A stretch of 64,000 nt of DNA from Vulcanimicrobiota bacterium (GTDB lineage Bacteria; Vulcanimicrobiota; Vulcanimicrobiia; Vulcanimicrobiales; Vulcanimicrobiaceae), in assembly GCA_963795855.1 (NCBI GenBank), contig CAWCIZ010000003.1:320001-384000 (forward strand). Reading direction: 5' to 3'. The position numbers were made by a program, and so were the translations under genes. Positions 47,775 through 63,743 of this stretch are shown here, in pieces; the stretch's first letter is position 1; each line of letters opens with the position of its first letter. The notes below the pieces were generated by a model. The model made no database searches and was not told where the DNA came from. It saw only the letters and a program-made list of their open reading frames with translations.

Positions 47775-48318
47775 CGAACCAACCGGCGTCCGCGTAAACA
47801 CGCGCACCGGCCCAGTCAGCGCTCCGATTGCCGCGCCCTCCGGGTGGCTCGCGGCGCTGTACCTGCTGCTCGCACTGCTCGCGCAGCTGGAACTCATGCA
47901 CTACCTGAGTTTTCGCGGCGCCGAGGCAAGCGCGGTACTGGTCGTGGTCGTCTGGTACGCGCTGCGGGCGGACTTCGTTCAGGCGGCTGTTTTCGGCTTG
48001 GCGGCCGGTCTTTGCGAAGACATTTTCAGCGCGCAAACGGGAATCGCGTGGACCGCGGCGACTCCGCTTACCGCGCTGTTCGTGAGTTGGCTGTCGCGAT
48101 GGTTCTTTGCCGATTCGATTCCGATCGTCGCCGGCGTCGTGCTTGCCGGCACGCTGGTGCGCCGCATGCTTTTCTGGGTCGTGATGGCGCTGCAGGGCTA
48201 TCCGCCCGGCTACGCGCGCCTGCATTTGCATCAGGCACTTTGGGAAGCGCTGCTCAATGCGCTGCTCGTCTCGGCGTTTATGCTCGTTAGCCGATTTCGG
48301 GAGTCCCGCAGCGCGTGA
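47761..48318 (+). CDS. mreD: Rod shape-determining protein MreD (start uncertain)
   Basis: Hydrophobic protein with FGLAAGLCEDI between mreC and mrdA. Confidence 0.8.
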   Translation: MFRSNEPTGVRVNTRTGPVSAPIAAPSGWLAALYLLLALLAQLELMHYLSFRGAEASAVLVVVVWYALRADFVQAAVFGLAAGLCEDIFSAQTGIAWTAATPLTALFVSWLSRWFFADSIPIVAGVVLAGTLVRRMLFWVVMALQGYPPGYARLHLHQALWEALLNALLVSAFMLVSRFRESRSA

Positions 48319-50174
48319 AGCAATACGGCCGGCGTCAAATGCGCTGGGAGTTCTCTTCATGGCGCGTTGCCTTCTTCGCCGCGATGACGCTCATCGCGCT
48401 GATCGTCGTCATCGTGCGGCTGATACAGGTGCAACTCGTGCACGGCGAAGAGTACCGCGCCGCGGCGCAAGCGAATCAGATTCGGCTCATTCCCGTTGCG
48501 GCGCCGCGCGGTTTGGTGTACGACCGCGACGGCAAGGTGATCGTCCGCAGCCGTCCGGAATTCGTCGTCGCGCTCATTCCCTCGCTCGTAAAAGACGTCG
48601 ATTCCGAATTGCGGACCGTTGCGCAAACGATCGGCGTTCCGGAAAAGCAGCTCCGCGAGCAATTGCTGCATCACCACGGCGTCAATTACAAGAATTTCGA
48701 CGAAGTCGTCGTGTACGAGCCGTACGGGCCCGTGATTCTCGCCAGCGACATTCCGGTCGCGAAGGTGAGCCGGCTCTCAGAAATTTTGAACGACCTGCCG
48801 GGCGTCGACGTCGAGGTGCAGGCCGTCCGCAATTATCCGCACGGGAGTGAGGGTTCCGCGGTCTTCGGCTACGTCGGGCAAATCACTCCGGACGAATACA
48901 AGCGCCTGCGCAGTCAAGGGTATTCGATGAACGACGTCGTCGGAAAAGACGGCATCGAATACGAGTACGACAAGTATCTTCGCGGGCAGCCGGGCGGTCA
49001 ACGCATCGTCGTCGACTCGCAAAGCCAGGTCGTCCCCAACATCAAACTTCCGCCGAAGCAGCCCGTGCCCGGCGATAGTCTGGTACTCAACATCGATTGG
49101 CGCCTGCAGCAGATCGCGGACGAAGCGCTGGAGCAGGGCGTGCGCTCCTGGACCGGCGGCAAGTACCGGCTGGGCGCGGCCGTCGCAATTCTCGATCCGT
49201 GGTCGGGACGCGTGCTCGCCCTTTCGAGCTATCCGCGCTACGATCCGAACGCGTTCGCATCCGACGACTATAAAAAGATCGCGAAGTATCTGCTCGATCC
49301 GCTCGATCCGTTGTTCGATCGCGCGATCGCGGCAGCGACGCCGACGGGATCGACGTTTAAGATGATCACCGGATCCGCCGCACTCACGACCGGCGTCGTC
49401 AAAGTGAATGAAAACGTCTACGACTCCGGCGCGTGGAACTGCTACGGCGCGGAATTCGAAGACATCGCCTCCGGCGGTTTGGGCAACACAGCGTTCGTGC
49501 ACGCACTCGCGGCTTCGTCGGACGGCTACTTCTATCAGATGGGCTATCGCTTGGGGAACGATCGATTGCGCAAGTACGCGCAATACTACGGCATCGGTCA
49601 AAGAACCGGTATCGACCTACCGGGCGAGTTTGCGGGTAACTATCCGACCAATGCCTGGATGCTGAAAGTCGCCGGGGTTCCCCTCGAACCGTCCGACGTC
49701 TGCAGCTTGGCCATCGGGCAAGGCGCACTCGAAGCCACGCCTTTGCAGATGGCCACCGTCGAATCCGCGGTCGTGAACGGCGGAACGCTGTACAAACCGG
49801 AGATCGCCTGGCAAGTGCGCGATCCGCAAGGACACGTCATCCGCACGTTCGATCCGCAGGTGCGCCGGCACGTTCCCGTCACGCCGGAGTCGCTCAAAGC
49901 CGTGCGCGAAGGCATGGATCAAGTGACGGAGCCATGGGGAACCGCGTATGGACTCGCAATCAACGGGCTGCCTTACGGCGGAAAAACCGGAACCGCGGAA
50001 ACCGGAAACGGCGCCGGCGCGAACACCACGTGGTTCGTCGCGTACGCACCCGCCAAACACGCGAAGATCGCAATGGCCGTGTTCGTCGATCGCTCCGGCG
50101 GCTACGGAGCGTCCGTCGCGGCGCCGATCGCGCGCCAGATCATGGTGAAGTACTTCAACATCAAAAACCCGTAG
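48315..50174 (+). CDS. mrdA: Penicillin-binding protein 2
   Basis: APRG..YDR, STFK (SxxK), SSD, KTG. Confidence 0.93.
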   Translation: MKQYGRRQMRWEFSSWRVAFFAAMTLIALIVVIVRLIQVQLVHGEEYRAAAQANQIRLIPVAAPRGLVYDRDGKVIVRSRPEFVVALIPSLVKDVDSELRTVAQTIGVPEKQLREQLLHHHGVNYKNFDEVVVYEPYGPVILASDIPVAKVSRLSEILNDLPGVDVEVQAVRNYPHGSEGSAVFGYVGQITPDEYKRLRSQGYSMNDVVGKDGIEYEYDKYLRGQPGGQRIVVDSQSQVVPNIKLPPKQPVPGDSLVLNIDWRLQQIADEALEQGVRSWTGGKYRLGAAVAILDPWSGRVLALSSYPRYDPNAFASDDYKKIAKYLLDPLDPLFDRAIAAATPTGSTFKMITGSAALTTGVVKVNENVYDSGAWNCYGAEFEDIASGGLGNTAFVHALAASSDGYFYQMGYRLGNDRLRKYAQYYGIGQRTGIDLPGEFAGNYPTNAWMLKVAGVPLEPSDVCSLAIGQGALEATPLQMATVESAVVNGGTLYKPEIAWQVRDPQGHVIRTFDPQVRRHVPVTPESLKAVREGMDQVTEPWGTAYGLAINGLPYGGKTGTAETGNGAGANTTWFVAYAPAKHAKIAMAVFVDRSGGYGASVAAPIARQIMVKYFNIKNP

Positions 50175-50481
50175 GCGAAGCTGAGCGCCGAAGCGCCGAT
50201 TCGATTGCGGATCGAACCGCCGGATTTCGTTCCTCGCTTCGCGCGCGTTCGAGAATCGAGCGGCTCCAAGCAGTATTGAGTATGCCCAGGCGTTCCGCGA
50301 CGTCCATGCGCAATCGCGCGTCGGCCTGCGTAAGCGAATCGTCGACGAGCTGCGTCCATTGCACGGAAGAGCGCGCCCGCGCCGGCTTACGGCGCGATCC
50401 CATTAGCGCGGAAGCGATCCCGAGCAGCAGTACGCCGACGACAACGACGACGGCCAGGAGGATCCACGCTGCCGACGACAC
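50161..50481 (-). CDS. Small membrane-anchored HEAT-like protein (module 2)
   Basis: N-terminal TM, linker, WTQLVD, then RLRMDVAERLG...ERNPAVRSAIESAL helical repeat. Confidence 0.6.
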   Translation of the reverse strand: MSSAAWILLAVVVVVGVLLLGIASALMGSRRKPARARSSVQWTQLVDDSLTQADARLRMDVAERLGILNTAWSRSILERARSEERNPAVRSAIESALRRSASPTGF

Positions 50482-50489
50482 GGTGCCGG

Positions 50490-53400
50490 CTAAGGAATGC
50501 TGTACTGGGCCGCGGCGCGCAGCGCGTCCAGCACCGCCCCAAGCGCATCGTCCAGCGTGCGATTGACGCTCGACGTCAAAACGCGATGGAACTCCGACAT
50601 CGGCAGCGTCTCCAGCACGGTGAAGACTTTGACGAGCTCCGTGCGATACAAACCGAGAACGCCGCTGTGGGTTTGCTCGACGCCGGTCGAAGCGCCGTCG
50701 TAATCGACCCGCTCGCCAAGCAAATGCGCGCTGACGATCCACGGCGCGACCGAGCCCAGCGGCGTTTGCTCCAGTTCGGCAGCGCGACGCGCGAGCGCGG
50801 CGCGGTCGGGTGAACCGCTCAAACGCACGACGCCTTGCGGCCGCTGCGGCATCGGTTCGGGCGGTGCTTCCAAAACCGCGGCGATCAGTCCGCGCAGCGC
50901 GAAACGGCTGTCGCGATCTTCCAAGTCTTTCGCCGTGATTGCAAGGCGTGGGACGCGCAGGCGTACGAAAAAGCGGTCCAGCGGTGCGCGAATCGCGCGC
51001 GACCCGTTCTCCACGATCTGCGCGAGCTGTACGTTCCTGCCGGCAATCGCGTTGGGAAAGAGCGCGCGAACTGCAAAGACGTGAGGGACGAGGCCACCGG
51101 CATCGCTTTTTTCCAGCGTGCGGATCGCTTGCGTCAGTTCCTCTTGCGAGAAATCCAGGTAGAGCACGGGGCACGGCGCGGCAAAGTCTTCCGCCGCACT
51201 TTCTTGGACGAGCGGGGAGCCCTCGATACGCGGCTCGCGATCTTCGGCTGCGGATTGCGACGGCGCAGTGGGCCGAGGACGTTCATCGATCGGCGGCGGA
51301 ACGATCGTTTCAGGCGCCGGAGACTTCGAGCGCAGGCTGCAGCGCGGCTACGGAGATCGGCGTTCCGGTACTGCCGGCTTCCAGAGACGGCGTTGAGAGG
51401 ACGCGCAGCGTGGGCGCCGCCAAGCCGATGGAGTGGCCGCCGTCCCATTCGACGACGGCGCGCGTATCGATCGCCGTCCCTTCCGCGAGCGGCGCAATGA
51501 CGAGCATCTCCCAACGCACGCGCAGTTCTACGCCGGGATTCACGTCGGTCAGCGCCAATCCGCGCTGCGACCACAACTGGGAGGTTCCCAAGTCATCGCC
51601 CAACGCCATGCCGTTCAGCGTCGTGCTGCCCGGAACGTAAACGGCGAGATTCGACGGTACGGCGCGCACCACGAGATGTTCGGCCGGACCATCGCCGCTG
51701 TTGCGCAGCGCGATCTCGTACGCCGCGCGATCGCCGGCGTTGATCGTCTCGGGGGGATTGCAGCGCAATTGCGCCTGATCTTCGAATTCCGGCTGCGCAA
51801 ACGTCGCGATCTCCAGCGCTTCGAAATGGACGGGGCTGATCCCGCGGCCGGACAACGTACCTTCCAGCGCAAACGTGCGATCGCGCCGCGCCCGCAGCAG
51901 ACGCACGCTGATGCGCGCTTCGTGCGTCGTCTCCGCCGGAACGTCGCCGAAACGCAGGCCGCCGGCGCCTTCGCGATGCGCGTTGAGCGCGCGCTCGATC
52001 GCGAGCTCGGCTGGAAGCGTGAGTTCCAATCGCGCGTCGCGCAATGCGTCCGGTCCATCGTTCGTGAACCGAATCGCTATGTCGTGCGTCTGTCCGGGCC
52101 GAAGCGCTTCGGATTGCACGCGTTCCCACGTGCACGACTCCGCGGCGACGTGCGGACGCGACCGCACGACGACGGTCGCGACGCCCAAATCGAACGTTCC
52201 GGCGCCGAATTCGAGCACCGCCCCGAGCGTGACGTGCGAACGATCGGGCACGGGCGAAGCAACGCGCGCGCGTATCGTGAACGTGCGCTCCGCATGCGGC
52301 TGCACGATGCCCAGCGAGAACGGTTCCGCGTACGCCACCGGCTCGTCGGGCGATTCCGCGATTCGCACCTCTTCCAAAAACGCGCCCGGAATAACGCGCA
52401 GATTTACGTCCGGCTCCGCCGCCGTGCCGTCGTTGAACACGTGCGCCGTGAACGTCACGTCTTCACGCGCGGCGACGAGTCCGCGATCGACCTCGATGTA
52501 ATTACGCGCGCGAGTGAAGCGTGAGTTCGCGCGAACGCGCAGCGTCCGGGCGAAGCGCCGTTCGAGAATCTTGCCGGAACCGCTCGAGGGACCTTTCCAT
52601 CGCAGGACGGCCGCGATGGGAAGTTCGCCGCCGTTCTGCATCGTGACGATGCTCGCAATGCCCGCGTCGGCGATGCGTCCGGACGGCAGCGTTCCGAGTG
52701 AAAACGCGGATCCCGCGAATGCTTCCTCGCCGACGGGCTGCCCGTCCAGATGCGCAGATCCGGGTGTGTACACCAGGCCGTCAGGCAGTTCAAAAGCGAT
52801 CGACACGTTATGCGCTTCGCCCGTGCCGCCGTTCACGATACGGGCGGTCATGGGCACGCGCGTGCCGGGCGAAACAACGTCGTCGCAAAACACGGTAAGC
52901 GCGGTTTCGTCGTTGGCGAAATCGGCCGGCGATCGCACGACGATCTCCGCCGACGTGACCGGAAACTCTTCCACTTCCCGCGAGGAAATTGCGCCGGCGG
53001 CTTTGATCCGCGTACCGTCCGCGAGCGGCGATTCGATCGCGGCTTGATATTCTGCGACGATCGACTGGCCGGGCGCCAACCGCTCCGCGACGATCGTTTC
53101 GTTCGCGTAATCGAACGGTTCGCTCGGCGCGTTCACGAGCGCGCGCCCGGCGATGCGCGCGCTGCGCTGAACGTACGTCGTGTTTGCGGGCAGCGGGAGG
53201 AATGCAAGGACGTCGTGCGCTGTCGATGCGCCGGTGTTGACGATGGTGGCTTGAATGACGATGACGTCGCCGGGTTTCGGCTCACCGGGCGCCAGAATCG
53301 TCAGCAGCGTCGTCGTATTCTGCAGCAGCGGCAGGCTACGCACGACCAGCCGTTCGCGATTCGAGCCGAGAACCGGCGTCTGTTCGGTGCTGAGCGCGGC

Positions 53401-53784
53401 TTGAAAAAAAAGTTCCGAGCCGTCTTCGATACGTGCGTCGACGCGAAAGCTGCACGCGACGCGGCGCTGCGCGTTTTGCGCGAGCTCACCGAGGGCGGCG
53501 CCTTCGGGGGCGACGAGCCGCTCACCCTCGAGCGGCGCATCGTCGAGCGTATCGCTGCCGTCGATTGCCGTTACACCCGACGGCGCGGCAAAACGCACGC
53601 GAACGCCGGTGGCGGGCGCGCCGCCGAGATTGGAAAACGCGAATTCGACGCGGATCGTTTCGCCCGGCGACACCGTTCGGCGCGGCGTCACCACGAGCGT
53701 TCGAAGACTCTCCACGAGCACCGGAGAGCCAGGTGCGAAGACGCCGGTCAGCGCGCTGGTTTGGGGCCCGTCAGTGGCTGCCAC
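50490..53784 (-). CDS. Large DUF11/Ig-like repeat protein, ~1,100 aa (module 2; frameshift ~51320)
   Basis: Six xNxG-type repeats; a Pro/Glu linker in the shifted frame joins ORF 51310..53784 to ORF 50490..51167. Confidence 0.75.
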
Positions 53785-53796
53785 GGAAACTCGTGT

Positions 53797-54204
53797 TCAG
53801 TCGAGTAACTCGAGCGTCCTGGCGAGCCGCTCGGAACGCTCGCCGGGCCGCCGCTGCGCGTACTCTTCGATGACCTGCGAATCTCCACGCCGCATCAGCG
53901 CGTGCGCTGCAGCCAGCGCGACGGCGTCGGACGGATCGTCGAGCGCGTGCGAGAGCAGCTGCTGCGAACGCCGGTCTTCGAGATCGGCCACCGCGAAAAT
54001 CAGATCGCAGCGCGCCGGTTCTGAAAGGCCGGCGAACTCGTGGCCCGCTTCCGCCGTCCAATCGGTCGTTGCGGTGATGGGTTCGAGCGGTCGAAGCGGC
54101 GGCTGCGGCGCCGCAACGCTCGCGCGGGGCGCCATCAACGCATACGCGCCGATCGCGGCTCCGACGACGAAGACGGCTACGAGTACGGCAACGATCGCGC
54201 TCAT
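53797..54204 (-). CDS. Small membrane-anchored HEAT-like protein (module 1)
   Basis: MSAIVAVLVAVFVVG TM, WTAEAG, LSHALDDPSDAVALAAAHAL HEAT-like motif; ATGA overlap with the upstream gene. Confidence 0.7.
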   Translation of the reverse strand: MSAIVAVLVAVFVVGAAIGAYALMAPRASVAAPQPPLRPLEPITATTDWTAEAGHEFAGLSEPARCDLIFAVADLEDRRSQQLLSHALDDPSDAVALAAAHALMRRGDSQVIEEYAQRRPGERSERLARTLELLD

Positions 54205-57200
54205 GCAGGCAGATGCGCGAGTCTGCGTACGCACGACGTCGAGCGCCGCATCCAGCACCGGATACGGCTTGCGCTGCAGCGCATCGACGAACGCCGTCTC
54301 GTCCGCGCCCGCCAATTCGTCGAACGCGGCGATGGCCAGTCCGCGGTAGTGGCGCACGCCGTCACCTTCCGTCGGCATGAACCGCGCAAGCACCGCCCAC
54401 GGCAGCGCCGTTGCGAGCGGCGCACCGCTCAAGCGGCCTCGCAGTTCGGCCATCTCGCCGACGGAAACGCCTCCGTGCAAGATCAGCGAGCCGGACAAGT
54501 CCGCCGGCTGTGCGACCGGGTTTGCGCATTGCAACAGCGCTTCCAACGCATTGCGCGCCGCCGCAGATTCCAGGTCGCGCGGCGCGATGACGTACGTCGG
54601 CATGCGCAGCTTGATGAACACGCGGTCGAGCGTTTCGCGCAAAGTCTCGCGCACGTCCCGAAGGCGCGCATCGTCGCGTACTGCCATCGCATCCGGGAAA
54701 AACGCGCGAATCGCAAAGAGGTGCGAAACCAATCCGGTGAAGCGCGCTTCACCCAGGAATCGCAGCACGCGCGCGAGCCGATCGCGGTCAAATGCCACGA
54801 CGCATCGAACGCACTCGCTTTCGGCGACGGCGGCGCTCGCGAGGACCGCGGTAGCTTCATGTCCGTGTGCGTCGCCGTTTACGCTCGGCGCAAGCGAAAG
54901 CATCGAGCTGCCCGCGATCTCGCGCGAAACCGGCGTCGCCGGCGGAAGTTCCACGAACCCGTCTCCCGGCAGCGCGCGCTGCTGCGTGCCGCCGAACGAC
55001 GGCCCGAGCATTCCGTCCAGGCCGAACGGCAACCCCGAAATCGTATTCGCAAACGCGGGCGCGCACCGAACCTTCAGTTCCGGTGCGGTGATTTCATCGG
55101 TTCGATCGCCGTCGTACGCGACGAACGCCCGGCGCAGCAGCGCTTCACCCGAGCCAAGGCCGTTATGCACCACTTCGCGCCAGCGAATCGTCGCTTCGAT
55201 GCCCGGATCGACGTCGCTCAGCGCGATTCCGCGATCGCTCATGAGCGGAGAAAGGGCGCCGACGTCACGAACCGGCAAATCGTTCACCGCCGTGCTGTTC
55301 GGCACGTAAATGAGCGAATCGAGCGCAGGAACGGTGATGCGCACGCGGCGCGCGGGGCCGTCGCCGCTGTTGCGCACGTGCAGAACGAATTCGATGTCCG
55401 CGCCTGCGTCGACGAGTTCATCCGGTTCGCTTCGCAGCGTGCCGATCGCGAAGTTCGGCTCCGCCGTCGTGACGATCGTGAGCGGCGCGAGCTGCACCGG
55501 CAGCATGGCGTCGGCGCTCAGAACGGATTCGATCGAAACGGGGTGCGCTTTCGCTAGACTTCGCAAGAGGCGCACGCCCAGACGCGCTTCGGCACTCGCG
55601 CCCGGTGCGATTTCGCCGAAGAGCAGCGCGGAACGCTCGCGCGTCGCGCCTTCGACGCTTTCCAAGCGCGCCTCGGGCGAGACGTACAAGCGCAAACAGA
55701 CGTTTTGCGCGACGTCCGTGCCCTCGTTTCGCACGCGCACGAAAACGTCCACGAGTTGATTCGGACGAAAGACGTCGTCCTGCACCAGCGTAAGCGCGGA
55801 ACTATGCCCCGAAAAGGCGGGATGCGATTCAACGCGCCAGGTCACATCCTCGAGCACCGTCTCGCCGAGTTCGCGCGTGTGCAGGCTCGCGCCGAGCCGC
55901 AGTTCGCTGCGGTCGGCATAAGGCGTGCGAACGCGCGCCCGAACGGTAATTTTTCGCGAGCCGTACGCCTCGATCGTGCCGAGATCGATGCTTTCGTTCT
56001 CGATGTCGAGCCGCGCGTTTTTGTCGAATGCGCGCAGGTCGTCCAACGCCGGGTCCGCATGCAGGTGCAGCACGGCATCGGTCGCGGCGGCGCTGCCGTC
56101 GTTGACGATCGTTATCGCCGCTTCGCATTCGTCCGAAGGCTGCACGCACATGCTGCCTTCCCGCGTCACGCGATTGCGGCGCGCTGCGAAGTGCGGCGTG
56201 GAACGGACAGCGAGGTGCGCTTCGAACTCGCGCCGGGACCCGCCCCAGTGCAGCACCGGCGAAACCGCGCAGCACCGTCATGTCCGCGAGGGGCGACGCG
56301 ACGATCGCTTCCGCGGCGAATTCGACGCTTTGCCGAGCAGGCACGGCGCCTAGTTCGAATGCGGCGCTTTCTTTCTTCCGTTCGCGCACCGGCTTTCCGT
56401 CGACGCGCACGGATCCGCGCACGTGCACGAGCCCTTCCGGCAGCGCGTACGACACGCCGACGTTCTCCGCGGCCGTCGTTCCGCCGTTGTACGCCTGCAG
56501 CCGAAGCAGCACGCGCGCACCCGGCGACGCTTCTCCCGGTTCGATTGAAAAACCGGTCCGATCGTTCTCGAAATCCGCTTCCGCGCGAACGCACAGCGTT
56601 GACCGGTTCGAGATCGAACGCGGCGGTCTCTTGAGAAGCGATCTGCGCGCGGACTGCGAGGTTCGTGCCGTCCGGCAGCGGATCGTCGATGCGAACGCGG
56701 TATTGCAGCGTCACCGTTGCGCTCGCGGGCAGCGTGTGCGCGATGACGGGCGCGTGAACGTGATCGAACGGAGCGAGCAGATCGCGCTCGAGTTCGCGGC
56801 CGTTTACGCGCGCAGAATTCGGAACGTACGCGGTATGCTCGGGCACCGGAGCGACCACGACGACGTCGTGCGCGCTCGACTCACCCGCGTTGTGCACGCG
56901 CACCGTCACGGTTGCCTCGCCGCCCGGGCGCGGCTCGTGCTGACGCGACTCGATCGCCGCGGCGGTGAGCGCGTTGTCGAGCGTAGGACGGCTGCGGGCA
57001 ACCAGGCGCACGATATTCGAGCCGACCGGTGCGAGCTCGAATGCGGCAACCGCCGCCTGCAGCTCCACCATCGAACCGTTTTCGATGGCGCCGGCGACGC
57101 TGTAGGCAACCTCGATGCGACGCTCTTCGCCGGGCGCGACGTCGCCGATGTCCGCACCGGCACGAGCGAGCAGCGGCGAGTTGCCGTGTTCGTCGTCCAG

Positions 57201-57428
57201 CTCGGTGCCGTCCAGTTGACCGCTTCCGACGAGATAAACCAAGCCGTCGGGTAAGTTGAATCGTACGCGCACGCCCGTTGCACTCGCTCCGCCTTGGTTG
57301 CGGAACGTGAAGGATGCGCGCACAGTCATTCCAGGTTCCAACTCGCGCTCAGGCGAAACGACGAGGGTTCGAAGCCCCTCGGTTATGGTCGGAGCTCCCG
57401 GCGTGAAAACGTCCGTCAGGGTGCGCAT
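54201..57428 (-). CDS. Large DUF11/Ig-like repeat protein, ~1,075 aa (module 1; frameshifts ~56595, ~56265, ~54220)
   Basis: Six repeats such as FRNQGGASATGVRVRFNLPDGLVYLVGS and VRNSGDGPARRV...YVPNS. Confidence 0.75.
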
Positions 57429-57504: not shown

Positions 57505-58695
57505 ATGCTCGCAACCAAGGCCGATCGCATCGCCGACGCCGTGTCGCGGCTCGGATCGGAAAGCGCGTTCGAAGTCCTGGCTCGCGCGAAAGCGCTCGAA
57601 GCAGAGGGCAGGCGCGTCGTGCACATGGAGATCGGCGAGCCGGATTTCGACACGCCGGCGCATATCAAGGAAGCGGGCATCCAAGCGATCCGCGACAATT
57701 ACACGCATTACTCGCCGTCTGCCGGCATCATTCAGTTGCGTGACGTGATTGCCGACTATGCGGCCAAGTTCCGCCACGTCGAACCGTTCAGCCCGGAAAA
57801 CATCGTCGTGTCTCCCGGCGCGAAGCCCGTGATTTGGAACATCCTCAGCGCGATTTTGAGCCCGGGCGATGAGTTCGTGTATTTCGATCCGGCGTATCCG
57901 GCGTATGCGTCCTGCGCGAATTACCTCGGCGCGAAAGCCGTCGGCATTCCGCTGCACGAGGAAAAGAACTGGCGCATGGACCTGGACGAGCTGGAACGGC
58001 GCGTCTCGGACGATACGCGCGCGATTATGATCAACTCGCCGCACAACCCGACCGGCGGCGTGCTGACCAAGAGCGATCTCGAACGCATCGCTCAACTGGC
58101 GAAAAAACATGACTTTCTCGTGATAGCCGACGAGATCTACAGCCGCAACTTCTACGAGAACGAGTTTTCCTCGATCGTCGCGATAGCGGGCATGCGGGAG
58201 CGCACGATCGTCGTCGACGGTTTCTCAAAAGCATATGCGATGACGGGATGGCGCCTCGGATATGCAATCATGCCCTCGCAGCTCGCCAAAATCGTGACGC
58301 TCTTCAACAACAATACGTTTTCATGCGTGACGACGTTCGTGCAGCAGGCGGGCATCGCCGCGCTGCTCGGTCCCGACGAGCCCGTGCGAGAGATGAACGA
58401 AATCTTTCGCCGGCGGCGCGATCGCTTAGTCGACGGTCTGAACGCCATCTCCGGCATGTCGTGCACCATGCCGGAAGGCGCCTTCTACGCGTTTCCCAAC
58501 GTGAAAAGCATCACGACCGACGACAAGGCGCTTGCGGCGTATCTTCTACAGGAAGGCGGCGTAGCGTGTCTGGGCGGTTCCGCGTTCGGCGCTGCGGGCA
58601 AGGGCTATCTGCGTTTCTCCTATGCCGCGTCGCTCGAAGACATCGACTACGCGCTCGCGCAGATGAGACGGTGCGTGCCGCAATTCAAGCGGTAA
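57505..58695 (+). CDS. PLP-dependent class I aminotransferase (aspartate aminotransferase-like)
   Basis: IGEPDFDTP, NSPHNPTG, DEIY, GFSKAYAMTGWRLG. Confidence 0.93.
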   Translation: MLATKADRIADAVSRLGSESAFEVLARAKALEAEGRRVVHMEIGEPDFDTPAHIKEAGIQAIRDNYTHYSPSAGIIQLRDVIADYAAKFRHVEPFSPENIVVSPGAKPVIWNILSAILSPGDEFVYFDPAYPAYASCANYLGAKAVGIPLHEEKNWRMDLDELERRVSDDTRAIMINSPHNPTGGVLTKSDLERIAQLAKKHDFLVIADEIYSRNFYENEFSSIVAIAGMRERTIVVDGFSKAYAMTGWRLGYAIMPSQLAKIVTLFNNNTFSCVTTFVQQAGIAALLGPDEPVREMNEIFRRRRDRLVDGLNAISGMSCTMPEGAFYAFPNVKSITTDDKALAAYLLQEGGVACLGGSAFGAAGKGYLRFSYAASLEDIDYALAQMRRCVPQFKR

Positions 58696-58755: not shown

Positions 58756-61700
58756 ATGCGAGACAGCCGCGCACCTTGGCCCGTTCTGCGGCAGCTCGAA
58801 CGCGATCCGCTCGCGCTCGGCGCTGCCGCGCAATCCGACGCAAACCGCGAATGGCGAGCGCGCATAGAAGACGCGAAGCCGGTGAAGTCCGTCTGCCCGT
58901 ACTGCGCCGTAGGATGCGGTCAGTTGCTGTACGTCAAAGACGAGAAAATCGTTCAGATCGAGGGCGATCCGGATAGCCCCATTTCGCGCGGACGTCTCTG
59001 TCCGAAAGGCGCCGCCACGCGCTCGATGGTGCAGAGCCCTTCACGCGAATACAAAGTCAAATACCGCCGCCCGTACGGGACGCAGTGGGAAGAACTCTCG
59101 CTCGACCAGGCGATGGAGATGATCGTCGACCGCGTGCTCAAGACGCGGCGCGAAACGTGGGTCAGCGCGGACGAGGAGGGCCACGATCTCAACCGTTGCG
59201 AGGGGATCGGCAGCCTCGGCGGCGCGACGCTCGACAACGAAGAGAACTACGTCATGAAGAAGCTCTACACTGCGCTGGGCATCGTGCAGGTAGAGAACCA
59301 AGCCCGAATATGACATAGCTCGACGGTTCCCAGTTTGGGAACCTCGTTCGGCCGCGGCGGCGCCACAGACTTTCTGCAAGACATGCAGAATTCCGACTGC
59401 ATCGTCATCATGGGCTCCAACATGGCCGAGAATCACCCGGTTGGTTTCCAGTGGGCGATGGAGGCGCGGGAACGCGGCGCGCAACTCATTCACGTCGATC
59501 CGCGCTTCACCCGTACCAGCGCGATGTCGACGCTGCACGTCCCGATTCGTCCCGGAACGGACATCGCGTTTCTCGGCGGCATCATCAACTACATCATCGA
59601 AAACGACCGCGCGTTCAAAGACTACGTCGTCAACTACACCAACGCGCCGGTCATCCTCAAGGACGACTTCAAGGACACGGAAGATCTCGACGGCCTCTTT
59701 TCCGGATGGGACGAGGAGAAGCGCGGGTACGTCTTCGAGAGCTGGCAGTACAAAGGCATGGATCTGCACGGCGCGGCGGGCCAGCGCGAGGGTGAAGAAT
59801 CGCTCGCGAAATTGGGCAGCTTCCCGCAGAAAGAAGATGCGCTGCGCCACGGCGAGCCGCCGCACATGGACAAGACGCTGCAGCATCCGCGCTGCATCTA
59901 TCAGATCATCAAGCGTCACTATTCGCGCTACACGCCGCGAGACTGTCGCAAAAATTTGCGGCATCCGCCCGGAGCAGCTCGTAGACGTAGCGGAAGCGCT
60001 CTGCGCGAACAGCGGCCGCGACCGCACGGGCTGCTTCGCATATGCCGTTGCATGGACGCAGCACACCTACGGCGTGCAAATGATTCGCGCGGCCGCAATC
60101 GTGCAGTTGCTGCTCGGCAACATCGGGCGGCCCGGCGGGGGAATTTTCGCACTGCGCGGACACGCGTCGATCCAAGGTTCGACGGATATTCCCACGCTCT
60201 TCAACATTCTGCCGGGCTACATCGTCATGCCGCACGCGAAAGCGCACCACGATCTCAAACACTACATCGAATCGGAGGGCGCGAAGACCGGCTACTGGGG
60301 CAACCTCGACAAGTACATGGTGAGTTTGCTCAAGGCGTGGTACGGCGAGCATGCCACGGAAGAAAACGAGTACTGCTTCAAATTGCTCCCGCGCATCAGC
60401 GGCGACCATTCGGCGTACCGCACGGCGATGGGTATGGTCGACGGCAAGGTGAAAGGCTATTTCATCTGCGGCGAAAATCCCGCGGTCGGAAACGCGAATG
60501 CCGGTCTGCACCGCCGCGGCTTAGCGAATTTGGAATGGCTCGTCGTGCGCGATTTCAGCGAGATCGAAAGCGCGTCGTTCTGGTACGACTCGCCGGAGAT
60601 CGAATCCGGCGAGATGAGCACCGATCAGATCAAAACCGAAGTATTTTGGATGCCGGCCGCGGCGCACACCGAAAAGGACGGGTCGTTCACCAACACGCAG
60701 CGGCTGCTGCAATGGCATCACAAAGCCGTCGAGCCGCAGGGAGACGCGCGGTCGGAGCTGTGGTTCTTCTATCACTTGGGCAAACGCATAAAGCAGAAGA
60801 TCGAGGAACAGGACGAGCCCTGGTCCGATGCAATCCGGCTGCTCACATGGGATTATCCCACAAAAGGTGAGATTGAAGAGCCCGACGCGCACATGGTGCT
60901 GCGCGAGGTGAACGGGTGGGATGCCGAAGGGAAATCGCTCTCTTCATACGCCGAACTCAAAGCCGACGGCAGCACCGTCTGCGGATGCTGGATTTACTGC
61001 GGCTGCTACAAAGACGAGCAGAACCAAACCGCGCGCCGCAAACCGCACTCGATGCAGACGTGGGTCGCGCCCGAGTGGGGCTGGTCGTGGCCGGCGAACC
61101 GGCGCATCTTGTACAACCGCGCGTCGGCCGATCTCGACGGCAACCCGTGGAGTATGCGTAAAGCGCTCGTGTGGTGGGACGCGCAGAAGAGTCAGTGGAC
61201 CGGCTACGACGTGCCGGATTTCGAGAAAACGAAACGGCCGGATTATACGCCGCCTAACGGCGCGCAGCGCGAAGAAGCGATCGCGGGCTGGCACCCGTTC
61301 ATCATGCAGGACGACGGACTGGGATGGATGTTCGTTCCGAACGGCATCGTCGACGGGCCGCTTCCAACGTATTTCGAGCCGCACGAATCGCCGGTTCAAA
61401 ACGCGTTGTACGGAACGCAAGCCAATCCGGCGCGGCAAGTCTTTCCGCGGCCGTTCAACCAGTACAATCCCTCGCCGAGCGAAAAACACGCGGGACTCTT
61501 CCCGTTCGTACTCTACACCTACCGGTTAACGGAGCATCACACGGCGGGCGGCATGACGCGCACAGTTCCGCATCTTTCCGAGCTCCAGCCGGAATTGTTC
61601 TGCGAGGTCAGCCCGGAACTGGCCGAGCTGCGCGGATTGCGCCACGGCGACTGGGCGACGATCTACAACGTGCGCGCCGTCATCGAAGCGCGGGTGATGA

Positions 61701-61963
61701 TCACGAAACGCGTTCAGCCGATGCGCATGAACGGCACGGTGCTGCATTCGGTCGGCCTGCCGTATCATTGGGGATCCCGCGGCATCGTCACCGGCGACAC
61801 CGTGAACGACTTGCTGCACATTGCGCTGGATCCAAACGTGCATATTCAAGAAACGAAAGGCTTGACGTGCGACGTCCGCGCCGGCCGGCGCCCGCGCGGC
61901 AAAGCTCGTCAACGCTTCCTGGACGACGTGCGCGCGGGCGCGCATCTGGAGAAGCCCGTATGA
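58756..61963 (+). CDS. Formate dehydrogenase alpha subunit, selenocysteine-containing (UGA 59311-59313; frameshift ~59940)
   Basis: CPYCAVGC...LCPKG; ENQARI-UGA-HSSTV; WTQH, LRGH, EKDGSFTN, YRLTEHH. Confidence 0.93.
59321..59346 (+). promoter_or_regulatory. Bacterial SECIS element
   Basis: GGTTCCCA-GTT-TGGGAACC hairpin starting 12 nt after the in-frame UGA. Confidence 0.8.
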
Positions 61964-62823
61964 CGACGTTCATCGATCTCACGCGCCTTCCGGCGCTCAC
62001 TTCGGCGGATTCGGAAGCGGCGACGTACGGTGCCGGCAAGCAGGACCGAATGGGCTTCTTCACCGACACGACGCTCTGCATCGGGTGCAAAGCGTGCGAA
62101 GTCGCGTGCAAGGAATGGAATCAGCTGCCGCAGGACGGCTACGAATTCACCGGTATGTCGTACGACAACACCGGCGAACTCAACGGCTACACCTGGCGGC
62201 ACGTCGCGTTCGTCGAGCAGTTCGATCGCACCGACGGCAAACCGCATCCGGAGCGCAAAGGGCGCTGGCTAATGGAATCGGACGTGTGCAAACATTGCAC
62301 GCACGCCGGATGTCTGGACGTCTGTCCCACGGGCGCGATAATTCGCACGGAATTCGGCACGGTCGTCATTCAAGACGACGTCTGCAACGGCTGCGGATAT
62401 TGCGTCGTGGCGTGCCCGTTCGGCGTGATCAGCGAACAAACCCAGGAAGGGACGATGGGAAAATGCACGCTCTGCTACGATCGCTTGAAAGCGGGAGACG
62501 AACCGGCGTGCGCCAAGGCATGTCCCACGCAATCGATTCAATTCGGTCCGGTTGACGAACTGCGCGAGCGCGCGGAACGCCGCTTGAGTCAAGTACAGAA
62601 CCGCTTCGAGGGCGCGCAACTGTACCTTACCAACGACGGCGACGGCATCGGCGGCGGCGGGTCGACGTGGCTGCTGCTCGACAAACCGGAAGTCTACGGA
62701 TTACCGCCGGACCCGGTCGTTCCCACGAAATATCTGCCGGAGATGTGGAAAGCGGCGGGGGTGGCGATGTCCGTGCTCGCCGGAGGAATCATTTTCGCAA
62801 GCATCGCGGGCAGCCGCCGATGA
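61960..62823 (+). CDS. Formate dehydrogenase iron-sulfur (beta) subunit
   Basis: CIGCKACEVAC, CKHC..AGCLDVCP, CNGCGYCVVACP, KCTLC; C-terminal TM; ATGA overlap. Confidence 0.93.
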   Translation: MTTFIDLTRLPALTSADSEAATYGAGKQDRMGFFTDTTLCIGCKACEVACKEWNQLPQDGYEFTGMSYDNTGELNGYTWRHVAFVEQFDRTDGKPHPERKGRWLMESDVCKHCTHAGCLDVCPTGAIIRTEFGTVVIQDDVCNGCGYCVVACPFGVISEQTQEGTMGKCTLCYDRLKAGDEPACAKACPTQSIQFGPVDELRERAERRLSQVQNRFEGAQLYLTNDGDGIGGGGSTWLLLDKPEVYGLPPDPVVPTKYLPEMWKAAGVAMSVLAGGIIFASIAGSRR

Positions 62824-63743
62824 TGATGCAAAACGCGCAGACGCTGCACGAGGAAAACGCGGGCTATTACGGCCGGCCCATGATCAAGCCGCCGGAGTGG
62901 ACCGACCTGATCCCGACGTATTTTTTCGTCGGAGGCTTGTCGGGTGCGGCGGCTCTGCTCGGCTTTACGGAACGCATCGCACGCAACGATCGGCTCGCGC
63001 GCACGATGATTTTCACCGCTGCAGCAGGCAGCGCCATCAGCGGTTTCTGCCTGATAGCCGATCTCAAGCGCCCGGAGCGTTTCGCCAACATGCTGCGCGT
63101 GTTCAAGCCTACGTCGCCGATGAGCATGGGCGTGTACCTGTTCAGTGCGTTCGGCGGCGCCGCCACGATCGCCGCGGCCAGCGAACTGACGGGGATCCTG
63201 CGGCCGATCGGGCGGATCTTCGAAGGAATCGCCGCGCTGCTCGGCCCCGGAATGTCGGTCTACACCGCCGTGCTGATCGGCGACACCGTGGTGCCGGCTT
63301 GGCATTACGGAAGGCTGTCGATGCCGGCGGTCTTCGCGGCCACGTCGGCCGCAACGGCGGGCGCAGCCGGAATGCTGTTCGCGCCCGCGCGCGCGGCTCG
63401 CCCGGCGCGCCGTTTGGCGCTCCTCGGCGGCATCGCCATGCCGATCGCGCTCGAGCAGCTGCACGTCGAACTCGGGCCGCGTCAAATGGAAGCATTCGAA
63501 CACGGTGAAGCGCGAACGTTCTCAAAAGCGGCGCGTTGGTTGAATCTCGCCGGATTGACGGCGGCTCTGTTCGCCAAGAACAGCGACGTCGCCGGCAAGG
63601 TCGCCGGCACGCTGCTGCTGGCGGCCGGCGCCGCAGAACGTTTCGGCATCTTCCGAGCGGGATGCGTCTCCGCAAAAGATCCGAGCTACACGATCGACGC
63701 GCAGCGTCGCCGCATGCGCGAAGAGGTTACAGCAGGCGCATAG
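62820..63743 (+). CDS. NrfD/PsrC-family membrane anchor
   Basis: YFFVGGL, DLKRPERF, SPMSMG, YTAVL...VPAW. Confidence 0.88.
   Translation: MMMQNAQTLHEENAGYYGRPMIKPPEWTDLIPTYFFVGGLSGAAALLGFTERIARNDRLARTMIFTAAAGSAISGFCLIADLKRPERFANMLRVFKPTSPMSMGVYLFSAFGGAATIAAASELTGILRPIGRIFEGIAALLGPGMSVYTAVLIGDTVVPAWHYGRLSMPAVFAATSAATAGAAGMLFAPARAARPARRLALLGGIAMPIALEQLHVELGPRQMEAFEHGEARTFSKAARWLNLAGLTAALFAKNSDVAGKVAGTLLLAAGAAERFGIFRAGCVSAKDPSYTIDAQRRRMREEVTAGA

Follow-up and report, generated by a model that had tools for sequence, protein, structure and literature searches.

Among described systems, those closest to the proteins reported here are the DUF11/CLIPPER fibrillar adhesins (PF01345, TIGR01451), which are built of tandem immunoglobulin (Ig)-like beta-sandwiches with an NxG motif, and some of whose DUF11 domains lack an isopeptide bond (PMC12617251). 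GhlA, the grappling-hook filament of Litorilinea aerophila, is likewise a DUF11 beads-on-a-string protein without a signal peptide, and is extracellular, with 49 repeats and an N-terminal hydrophobic helix (PMC13319060). Large membrane-tethered cytoplasmic scaffolds tied to flagellar and chemotaxis proteins are known from HubP/FimV, single chains with a periplasmic LysM domain, a transmembrane (TM) segment, an acidic region and tetratricopeptide repeats (TPR) (PMC8789113; PMC12918733), and in haloarchaea the HEAT_PBS-repeat protein OE2401F is tied to taxis together with a lineage-specific partner, CheF/DUF439, with both genes in che regions (PMC2666748). Here we describe a two-gene module, A-B, which occurs twice in tandem (A1-B1-A2-B2) in the window, that is, the whole stretch of 64,000 nucleotides analysed (Vulcanimicrobiota bacterium, GenBank assembly GCA_963795855.1, contig CAWCIZ010000003.1, positions 320,001 to 384,000; contig C3 of a six-contig assembly, hereafter G000). 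A is a giant DUF11-type protein with six repeats that is probably cytoplasmic, B is a short TM-HEAT protein encoded directly downstream of it, and the pair is coupled to flagellar and chemotaxis genes. The module is undescribed in the literature searched, a body that is incomplete and excludes supplements, and its coupling to these genes is a new result of this analysis.

Six-frame translation of the window places the four co-oriented genes on the minus strand (Table 1), with the array and all the motifs quoted for it by a first-pass annotation, made from the letters alone, found in place. The A1 stop and B1 start overlap as ATGA at 54201-54204; scans for promoters and terminators yielded nothing informative. 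Four +1 frameshifts, near 56601, 56264, 54221 and 51323, break the A genes, and each is missing in 4/4 same-genus genomes compared; the one near 54221 abolishes the A1 stop so that A1 reads into B1, in the G000 assembly only. We rejected a real A1-B1 fusion, as relatives carry separate genes. Relative to the genome G007, 18 of 67 genes are broken in G000 (20 shifts in 81.6 kb, a tally that counts A1 and A2 themselves and holds at least one double count). Judged from these alignments, the four shifts are probably assembly errors rather than real breaks, and pseudogene decay of the locus is unlikely.

Intact A orthologues (27 proteins) are 1064-1125 residues long from the conserved N-terminal motif, in agreement with the ~1,075-1,100 residues previously proposed for A1 and A2 after repair. 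NxG repeats occur six times, at residues 44, 180, 314, 442, 567 and 686, and in the AlphaFold2 model of full-length A (112-row alignment) six beta-sandwiches lead, through a linker of low confidence (790-856), to a C-terminal domain (C-domain) that stands apart. These positions and the model agree with the earlier view of A1 and A2 as colinear paralogues with six xNxG repeats, a Pro-rich linker and a helical C-domain. The mean predicted local distance difference test (pLDDT) of the model is 86.7 and its predicted template modelling score (pTM) is 0.47, as expected because the chain is flexible. The Pfam DUF11 model (PF01345) and TIGR01451 each hit all 27 A proteins in the alignment, the first member reaching 112.4 bits with PF01345 at a cut-off of 24.6. 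The repeats have an Ig-like beta-sandwich fold: the six domains of the model are all-beta and its Foldseek matches are Ig chains. The top rows for full-length A (E 1e-23 to 1e-17) are eukaryotic intracellular tandem-Ig proteins, namely ciliary central-apparatus chains and titin I65-I70, at TM-scores of 0.11-0.26 and ~10% identity, which speaks for a generic Ig chain only and does not show kinship. Such eukaryotic chains act inside cells as spacers, and by the analogy of these fold rows A may be likened to them.

A hydropathy heuristic detected no signal-peptide-like or TM-like stretch in any of the 27 intact A orthologues, so the lack of a visible signal peptide or TM helix noted at first holds after the frameshift issue is resolved; the maximum 19-residue hydropathy is 1.2-1.8 in A versus 2.3-3.6 in the B helix. 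Lys and Asp of the isopeptide triad are absent from all six repeats in the 112-row alignment, with triad positions set from motif spacing and not from superposition: Lys stands at any first-strand position in at most 6/112 rows, the D-x-L-P position is without Asp in all six repeats, and the triad Asn is kept only in repeat 1 (112/112) and partly in repeat 6 (39/112). Pfam and NCBIfam scans returned no sorting domain in A. A composition classifier trained on G000 (56 signal-bearing versus 912 other proteins, heuristic labels, cross-validated area under the curve 0.90) scored the Ig regions of A below 0.2 in 24/27 cases and below 0.5 in all 27, a score below 0.2 being given to 2/56 signal-bearing proteins. 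Exported DUF11 proteins of the same family, found in genome G011, retain signal peptides and K/D/N motifs, and four of their full open reading frames (ORFs) score 0.42-0.85. Since A has no signal-like stretch, has lost the triad, has a cytoplasm-like composition and differs from these exported relatives, it is probably cytoplasmic. A is a member of the DUF11 domain family that does not show the hallmarks of an adhesin tested here: unlike CLIPPER adhesins, it lacks the signal peptide, the sorting or adhesion domain and the triad Lys/Asp, and it has a fixed number of repeats, an extra C-domain without a recognised family and a dedicated membrane partner. Compared with GhlA, A has six repeats, no N-terminal hydrophobic helix and a separate TM-HEAT partner.

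The membrane partner B opens with one strongly hydrophobic N-terminal helix, as already annotated for both B1 and B2. After the helix come conserved basic residues (R27 in B1, R31 in B2), a Pro-rich spacer that varies between copies, a Trp motif and HEAT-like helices. Both B proteins had been credited with a W-T motif and a HEAT-like pair; B1 has the W-T motif and HEAT-like helices, while B2 has a W motif and one HEAT-like pair, and both score under the HEAT_2 cut-off of 27.7 (B1 24.6 bits, B2 16.4 bits), with many B1 homologues carrying a precomputed PF13646 match. Because the basic residues directly follow the helix, the positive-inside rule applied to the alignments suggests an N-out, C-in topology with cytoplasmic HEAT repeats. 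B1 and B2 are only ~20% identical, and single-copy ancestral-site genomes of genus g24 and family f2 encode a longer B with both B2-like and B1-like parts; B1 and B2 therefore seem to have arisen from a longer ancestral TM-HEAT protein, each shortened in a different way. PADLOC and PHROG profiles gave no match for A1, A2, B1 or B2, and one weak HEAT match (E 0.004) for the long B.

A and B are paired at nearly all loci examined. Profiles built from 29 of the A-adjacent B genes identified a B-like gene directly 3' of A in 61/62 A copies (63 rows, as one gene is split in two, at loci chosen by the analyst), and the remaining copy is followed by a short TM-bearing ORF. Outside the profile-building set, 30/31 A copies still pass the B profile, dispersed paralogues far from mrdA included. 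A and B thus co-occur in other genomes, and the first-pass annotation's undescribed, membrane-tethered heteromeric module is supported by this pairing, by the missing signal peptide and by a complex model that beats its controls. Conservation lies in the two-gene A-B pair and not in the four-gene block, since genomes carry 0 to 4 C-domain matches. Within a C-domain tree of 60 sequences (without the L018 A2 fragments and L030), the 27 copies preceding B1 form one branch (support 99/95) and the 20 tandem copies preceding B2 a separate one (100/99). Genus g53 has reduced A2 to a lone C-domain with all six Ig domains lost, which is followed by B2 in 9/9 genome loci and in 5/5 metagenome loci, some probably from the same organisms. 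That g53 keeps only the A2 C-domain and B2 suggests the C-domain as the partner of B.

A predicted structure is consistent with this assignment. The modelled complex of the G007 A1 C-domain with the soluble part of B1 reached an ipSAE of 0.72, versus 0.01 for the best of three controls; the ipSAE mark is reached by 116/157 solved pairs versus 2/215 mismatched ones, a guide that is rough here because our own alignments were used. The runs share at least 96% of contacts, with a partner pLDDT of at least 82. On A the modelled interface comprises the DRxFIKLR helix (922-937) and residues 878-885, and on B1 residues 61-69, 91-104 and 129-134. Interface residues of A are conserved above the rest of the domain (0.81 versus 0.60, permutation p 0.0004), and the C-domain is predicted to bind B via the conserved DRxFIKLR helix. 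A cytoplasmic complex of A and B is quite probable. Two irregular loci were also seen: in G175 (L047:7128-10817) one open frame spans B1 and A2, which may be a natural fusion of the two or the result of a lost stop codon, and in genus g13 (L035:7502-9420) the ancestral-site A is much shortened and diverged (~550 residues) and stands beside a tiny TM-bearing partner, with FliG and CheA in 4/4 genomes.

The C-domain itself was earlier called unrecognised, and Pfam, PDB sequence, Foldseek and VIA-align searches likewise gave no characterised family. Modelled in isolation, it is helical with two short strands (pLDDT 93.8, pTM 0.91). The C-domain alone has no Pfam match; against PDB sequences it found nothing below E 0.88, and the full-A profile was equally blank. 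Foldseek of the model against PDB gave no row at E <=0.001 among 500 counted, which does not imply a new fold, and VIA-align against 48,161 chains gave no clear match, the best being Z 5.2 at a root-mean-square deviation (rmsd) of 6.2 over 124 residues. Likeness to the TssK/IglD baseplate adaptor of type VI secretion systems (Z 4.8, rmsd 3.7, 96 aligned; Z 3.9, rmsd 3.7, 91 aligned) is within the range of unrelated helical bundles, and the best ESM Atlas feature score (0.88), to unnamed clusters of low recognition, is a lead at most. A profile search of 1.84 billion representative proteins gave 250 matches, among them lone C-domain proteins that are the A2 of genus g53, one of which is labelled Ca. 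Tyrphobacter; among the best 150 of these 250 matches, 49 long proteins were scanned and contain only Ig-type Pfam families or none.

To what extent the module follows motility genes was apparent from a draw of 301 genomes of the phylum, comprising 207 of family f1 (taken as Vulcanimicrobiaceae, G000 included), 3 of f2 and 91 others. The C-domain is present in 149/207 f1, 3/3 f2 and 0/91 other genomes, that is, in 152/210 genomes of the order to which Vulcanimicrobiaceae belong. Among f1 genomes, 87 have FliG, 93 have CheA and 97 have at least one of the two; A is present in 97/97 f1 genomes with FliG or CheA versus 52/110 with neither. With an A2-specific profile, at a cut-off of E 1e-55 picked after the FliG result was known, an A2-type C-domain was found in 60/97 FliG/CheA-bearing genomes versus 1/110 others, that one being a 270-contig assembly; 59 of the 61 A2-type genomes have CheA and 58 have FliG. 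FliG, CheA and A are all present in 3/3 f2 genomes. These tallies include G025, G034, G237 and G266, the exclusion of which alters no conclusion. Mapped on a quick-method mrdA tree of 41 genomes, the motility label requires 7 changes, of which at least 4 are forced, and A2 or a single ancestral-site copy is present in 17/17 FliG/CheA-bearing rows and 0/24 others; the tree leaves out g53 and four genomes without motility data, and its rows were picked by the analyst, partly by A state.

The pattern of loss is graded. Genus g53 has CheA in 7/7 genomes and FliG in 0/7, and it is here that only the A2 C-domain and B2 are kept. In g41, FliG and CheA were found in none of the genomes and A1-B1 in 26/59. 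G030 is without FliG and flagellin, and both its A copies lie away from the site between mrdA and the aminotransferase-like gene. A1 diverges faster in genomes without motility genes (Ig/aminotransferase distance 1.84, n=6, versus 1.47, n=9). Decay is thus stepwise: the A2 Ig chain is lost with flagella, the A2 C-domain and B2 are kept while Che genes remain, and A1-B1 outlasts both. In G030 and g53, we also observed a cluster without flagellar genes in which cheC-cheA-cheW is kept (L120:6451-11072, L121:8464-11905; with cheY in G030, where CheA is split) and methyl-accepting chemotaxis proteins (MCPs) are encoded elsewhere.

On these grounds, the A-B module likely has a direct part in flagellar or chemotactic function. 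The narrower proposal, that it is a cytoplasmic, membrane-tethered scaffold or landmark for the flagellar/chemotaxis apparatus, we hold to be an even call. B would anchor in the inner membrane by its single N-terminal helix with the HEAT repeats in the cytoplasm, where the HEAT groove, as modelled for A1-B1, would grip the DRxFIKLR helix of the A C-domain. The six Ig-like domains, at ~4 nm each, may then reach into the cytoplasm on the flexible Pro-rich hinge as a rod of an estimated ~25 nm, and might bind or space a putative part of the motor or chemoreceptor array, mark the assembly site, or self-associate. An old tandem duplication may have been followed by specialisation, in which the A2 Ig chain would serve with the flagellum and the A2 C-domain/B2 anchor last with the Che genes, while A1-B1 would outlast flagella and Che genes, then evolve faster and often be deleted. 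FlhF was not found above the cut-off in 5/5 flagellated genomes, and in G000 the best match is an SRP54 gene of the FtsY type. The determinant that usually sets the pole may thus be absent, leaving room for another landmark. HubP/FimV offers a functional analogy only: no LysM, FimV or TPR match was found in A or B by Pfam and NCBIfam scans, the two systems are unrelated by sequence, and A-B, unlike the single HubP/FimV chain, divides anchor and rod between two proteins, is built of HEAT and Ig domains and has no portion in the periplasm. A bolder and rather doubtful extension is that Vulcanimicrobiales possess a titin- or filamin-like internal motor skeleton, in which an adhesin-type Ig chain would have turned inward, lost its export signal and cross-links, gained a helical dock and a HEAT receptor, and, taking over from landmarks of the FlhF and HubP type, would mark the flagellar assembly site and hold the motor and chemoreceptor arrays.

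Several observations weigh against a scaffold or landmark serving motility. Here 'motile' means that FliG/CheA genes are present, and co-occurrence counts are inflated by kinship as related genomes are non-independent, so that Fisher p values computed on them are overstated. The 52/110 A-bearing genomes without FliG or CheA mostly carry intact A1-B1 with the interface helix kept, which therefore implies slow decay or a second job. Conversely, 37/97 motile genomes have no A2-type match at the cut-off, their A being of another type or a broken A2. G181 has FliG, but its sole A copy is a dispersed one, and neither CheA nor an MCP was matched in it. Nineteen FliG-bearing genomes of other families in the phylum are without the C-domain, so flagella do not in general depend on the module. 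In G000 the module is on contig C3 and the flagellar cluster on C2, and we know of no established polar flagellation in Vulcanimicrobiaceae. As for the predicted contact, the B interface shows no significant excess of conservation over the remainder of the protein (0.84 versus 0.78, p 0.18), and B2 is without the last helix that B1 uses in the complex model, A1-B1 being the modelled pair.

The persistence of the C-domain/B2 core in g53, which keeps cheC-cheA-cheW after deletion of its flagellar genes, and the joint presence of A2-type copies with CheA and FliG would also suit a chemotaxis signalling adaptor that relays CheY/CheC/CheA output to the motor or tunes switching, like OE2401F/CheF; in Halobacterium, switching requires the HEAT_PBS protein, for which Che and Fla proteins are binding partners (PMC2666748). 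We consider this unlikely, because Pfam and NCBIfam scans gave neither A nor B any signalling domain, whether receiver, kinase, PilZ or another, A1-B1 persists in genomes without a CheA match, and six tandem Ig domains on a long hinge would suit a spacer better than a switch. The likeness to the haloarchaeal system, a HEAT-repeat protein with a lineage-specific partner tied to taxis, does not establish homology: no homology to OE2401F or CheF was seen, though none was looked for by test, and the accessible text on that system places its genes in che regions and mentions neither a TM anchor nor an Ig chain. Somewhat less probable is that A, although signal-less, is exported by way of the flagellar type III gate to act as an adhesin on the surface or as an accessory of the flagellum, with B as a membrane-tethered chaperone that would retain it until export. 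The missing signal peptide of A, the co-loss of the A2 Ig chain with flagella and the first 20 residues of A, which are conserved and poorly ordered in the model, are in keeping with export, as is the usual role of DUF11 chains as adhesin stalks (PMC12617251); the signal-less DUF11 filament of Litorilinea is exported, but has an N-terminal hydrophobic helix that A does not (PMC13319060). The composition of A and its lost triad nevertheless set it apart from the exported DUF11 proteins of the same family, intact A1 occurs in many genomes without FliG, and a flagellum-independent, FlhA-like gate does not follow A, being present in A-negative G121, G145, G011 and G036 and not found in A-positive G099.

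Co-loss with motility genes could also be indirect, if A-B had an unrelated cytoplasmic job that is dispensable in the same sessile or streamlined lineages. This is improbable, though to our minds more probable than an envelope role. The A1-B1 pairs that remain in 52/110 non-motile genomes, the dispersed, fast-diverging paralogues in several genera and the handful of independent transitions that back the motility link all allow for it, whereas zero exceptions among 97 FliG/CheA-bearing family genomes, the stepwise decay of Ig chain with flagella and anchor with Che genes, and the failure of the exported DUF11 cluster, PilT and the orphan FlhA to follow A argue against it. The exported cluster was found in 8/20 A-negative versus 5/25 A-positive genomes, and mutual exclusion with A, considered as a candidate, was not seen; PilT was found in 0/61 order genomes at E 1e-120 and PilM in 0/46 at E 1e-20, both strict cut-offs, and no type IVa pilus link is drawn. 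A cultured species has been described with a Gram-negative envelope and pili and, in the accessible text, no flagella (PMC9758169). The least probable reading, and a very remote one, is a cell-shape or envelope scaffold with MreC, MreD and PBP2 (penicillin-binding protein 2), which the position beside mreCD-mrdA would suggest; the first-pass annotation had noted this convergence and named an envelope system among its readings. The main locus does adjoin mrdA in most family genomes fetched, and a membrane-anchored cytoplasmic rod could bind MreB, yet the module is convergent with mrdA and not co-transcribed. Moreover, mrdA is followed by the aminotransferase gene within ~2 kb in 16/16 A-negative family genomes with enough contig, and also adjoins it in one f3 genome; four A-negative g41 genomes (L075:2364-2777, L076, L079, L080) keep a ~30-codon 5' remnant of A between the two genes. 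Because this adjacency persists in A-negative genomes, the position beside mrdA is uninformative on the elongasome. The module occupies an old insertion site, from which it has been cleanly deleted in some lineages with mreCD-mrdA left in place. In f2 and in seven dispersed paralogues A lies away from mrdA, and mrdA was found in 26/27 genomes tested irrespective of A. We therefore rejected the elongasome link as synteny, the adjacency being ancestral and many A copies lying elsewhere, and return to the membrane-tethered scaffold or landmark as the preferred reading.

Table 1 Features of the A-B module and its flanks, in window positions.
Feature	Position	Strand	Description
A1	54201..57428	-	Six-Ig DUF11-type protein without signal peptide, with C-terminal predicted B-binding domain, ~1,075 residues; frameshift-broken in assembly
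A1 six beta-sandwich repeats	55057..57371	-	Approximate starts 57371, 56990, 56581, 56196, 55824, 55461; no isopeptide Lys/Asp
A1 Pro-rich linker	54823..55056	-	Predicted disordered, pLDDT <50 at residues 790-856
A1 C-terminal domain	54201..54822	-	Alpha-helical with two short strands, ~200 residues, pLDDT 93.8, pTM 0.91
A1 conserved helix RETLDRVFIKLRMPTY	54592..54639	-	Predicted B1 contact surface
B1	53797..54204	-	135 residues; N-terminal TM helix, Pro-rich spacer, W-T motif, HEAT-like helices; predicted A1 C-domain receptor
A2	50490..53784	-	A1 paralogue, ~34% identical; of the copies, the one most closely linked to flagellar/chemotaxis genes; +1 shift near 51323
A2 six beta-sandwich repeats	51388..53703	-	Whole part absent in non-flagellated genus g53
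A2 C-terminal domain	50490..51182	-	Conserved helix DRFFVRLRVP at ~50943-50990
B2	50161..50481	-	106 residues; N-terminal TM helix, basic stretch, W motif, one HEAT-like pair
mrdA (PBP2)	48315..50174	+	Convergent neighbour; flank of insertion site, outside module; name presumed from sequence, context and family features
Class I aminotransferase-like gene	57505..58695	+	Divergent, 76 bases from A1 start; other insertion-site flank, outside module; name presumed from sequence

The 3' ends of B2 and mrdA overlap by 14 bases. Further along the window, at 58756-63743 on the plus strand, lies a formate-dehydrogenase-like operon whose large subunit is broken by a TGA after ...ENQARI, presumably a selenocysteine codon, and by a separate frameshift. 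In G038 (L091:3300-14700), mrdA and B are separated by a flagellin gene together with clustered, unannotated genes that are signal-bearing and pilus-like or usher-like (the scan covered flagellin). Within the flagellar cluster of G000 (C2, ~329000-378000; L115-L117) a PilZ-domain gene directly follows flhA, where flhF-flhG often sit. A second, flagellum-independent export-gate cluster with FliQ-, FliR-, FlhB- and FlhA-like genes was seen at L118:10546-14580 and L119:10397-14086; the orphan FlhA-like gene occurs in 14/15 family genomes without FliG, and a second, frameshifted copy lies in G000 (C3:829966-831822). The exported DUF11 cluster of G011 (L054, L059, L064, L072), with its signal peptides and K/D/N isopeptide motifs, is patchy (13/45 family genomes) and possibly fimbrial.

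The above analyses suggest that repeats described as extracellular stalks in DUF11/CLIPPER proteins appear to be used by Vulcanimicrobiaceae inside the cell, docked to a membrane receptor. Through its tight co-loss with fla/che genes, a hypothetical giant protein becomes a candidate motility component, open to test, in a soil lineage that is abundant but barely cultured. The C-domain and its HEAT partner are small (~200 + 100 residues) and make a tractable pair for binding and structural studies. Were the motility link indirect, A-B would still be a new protein-protein module, of narrower interest; if it is true, these bacteria would have a new way to place or brace the flagellar motor.

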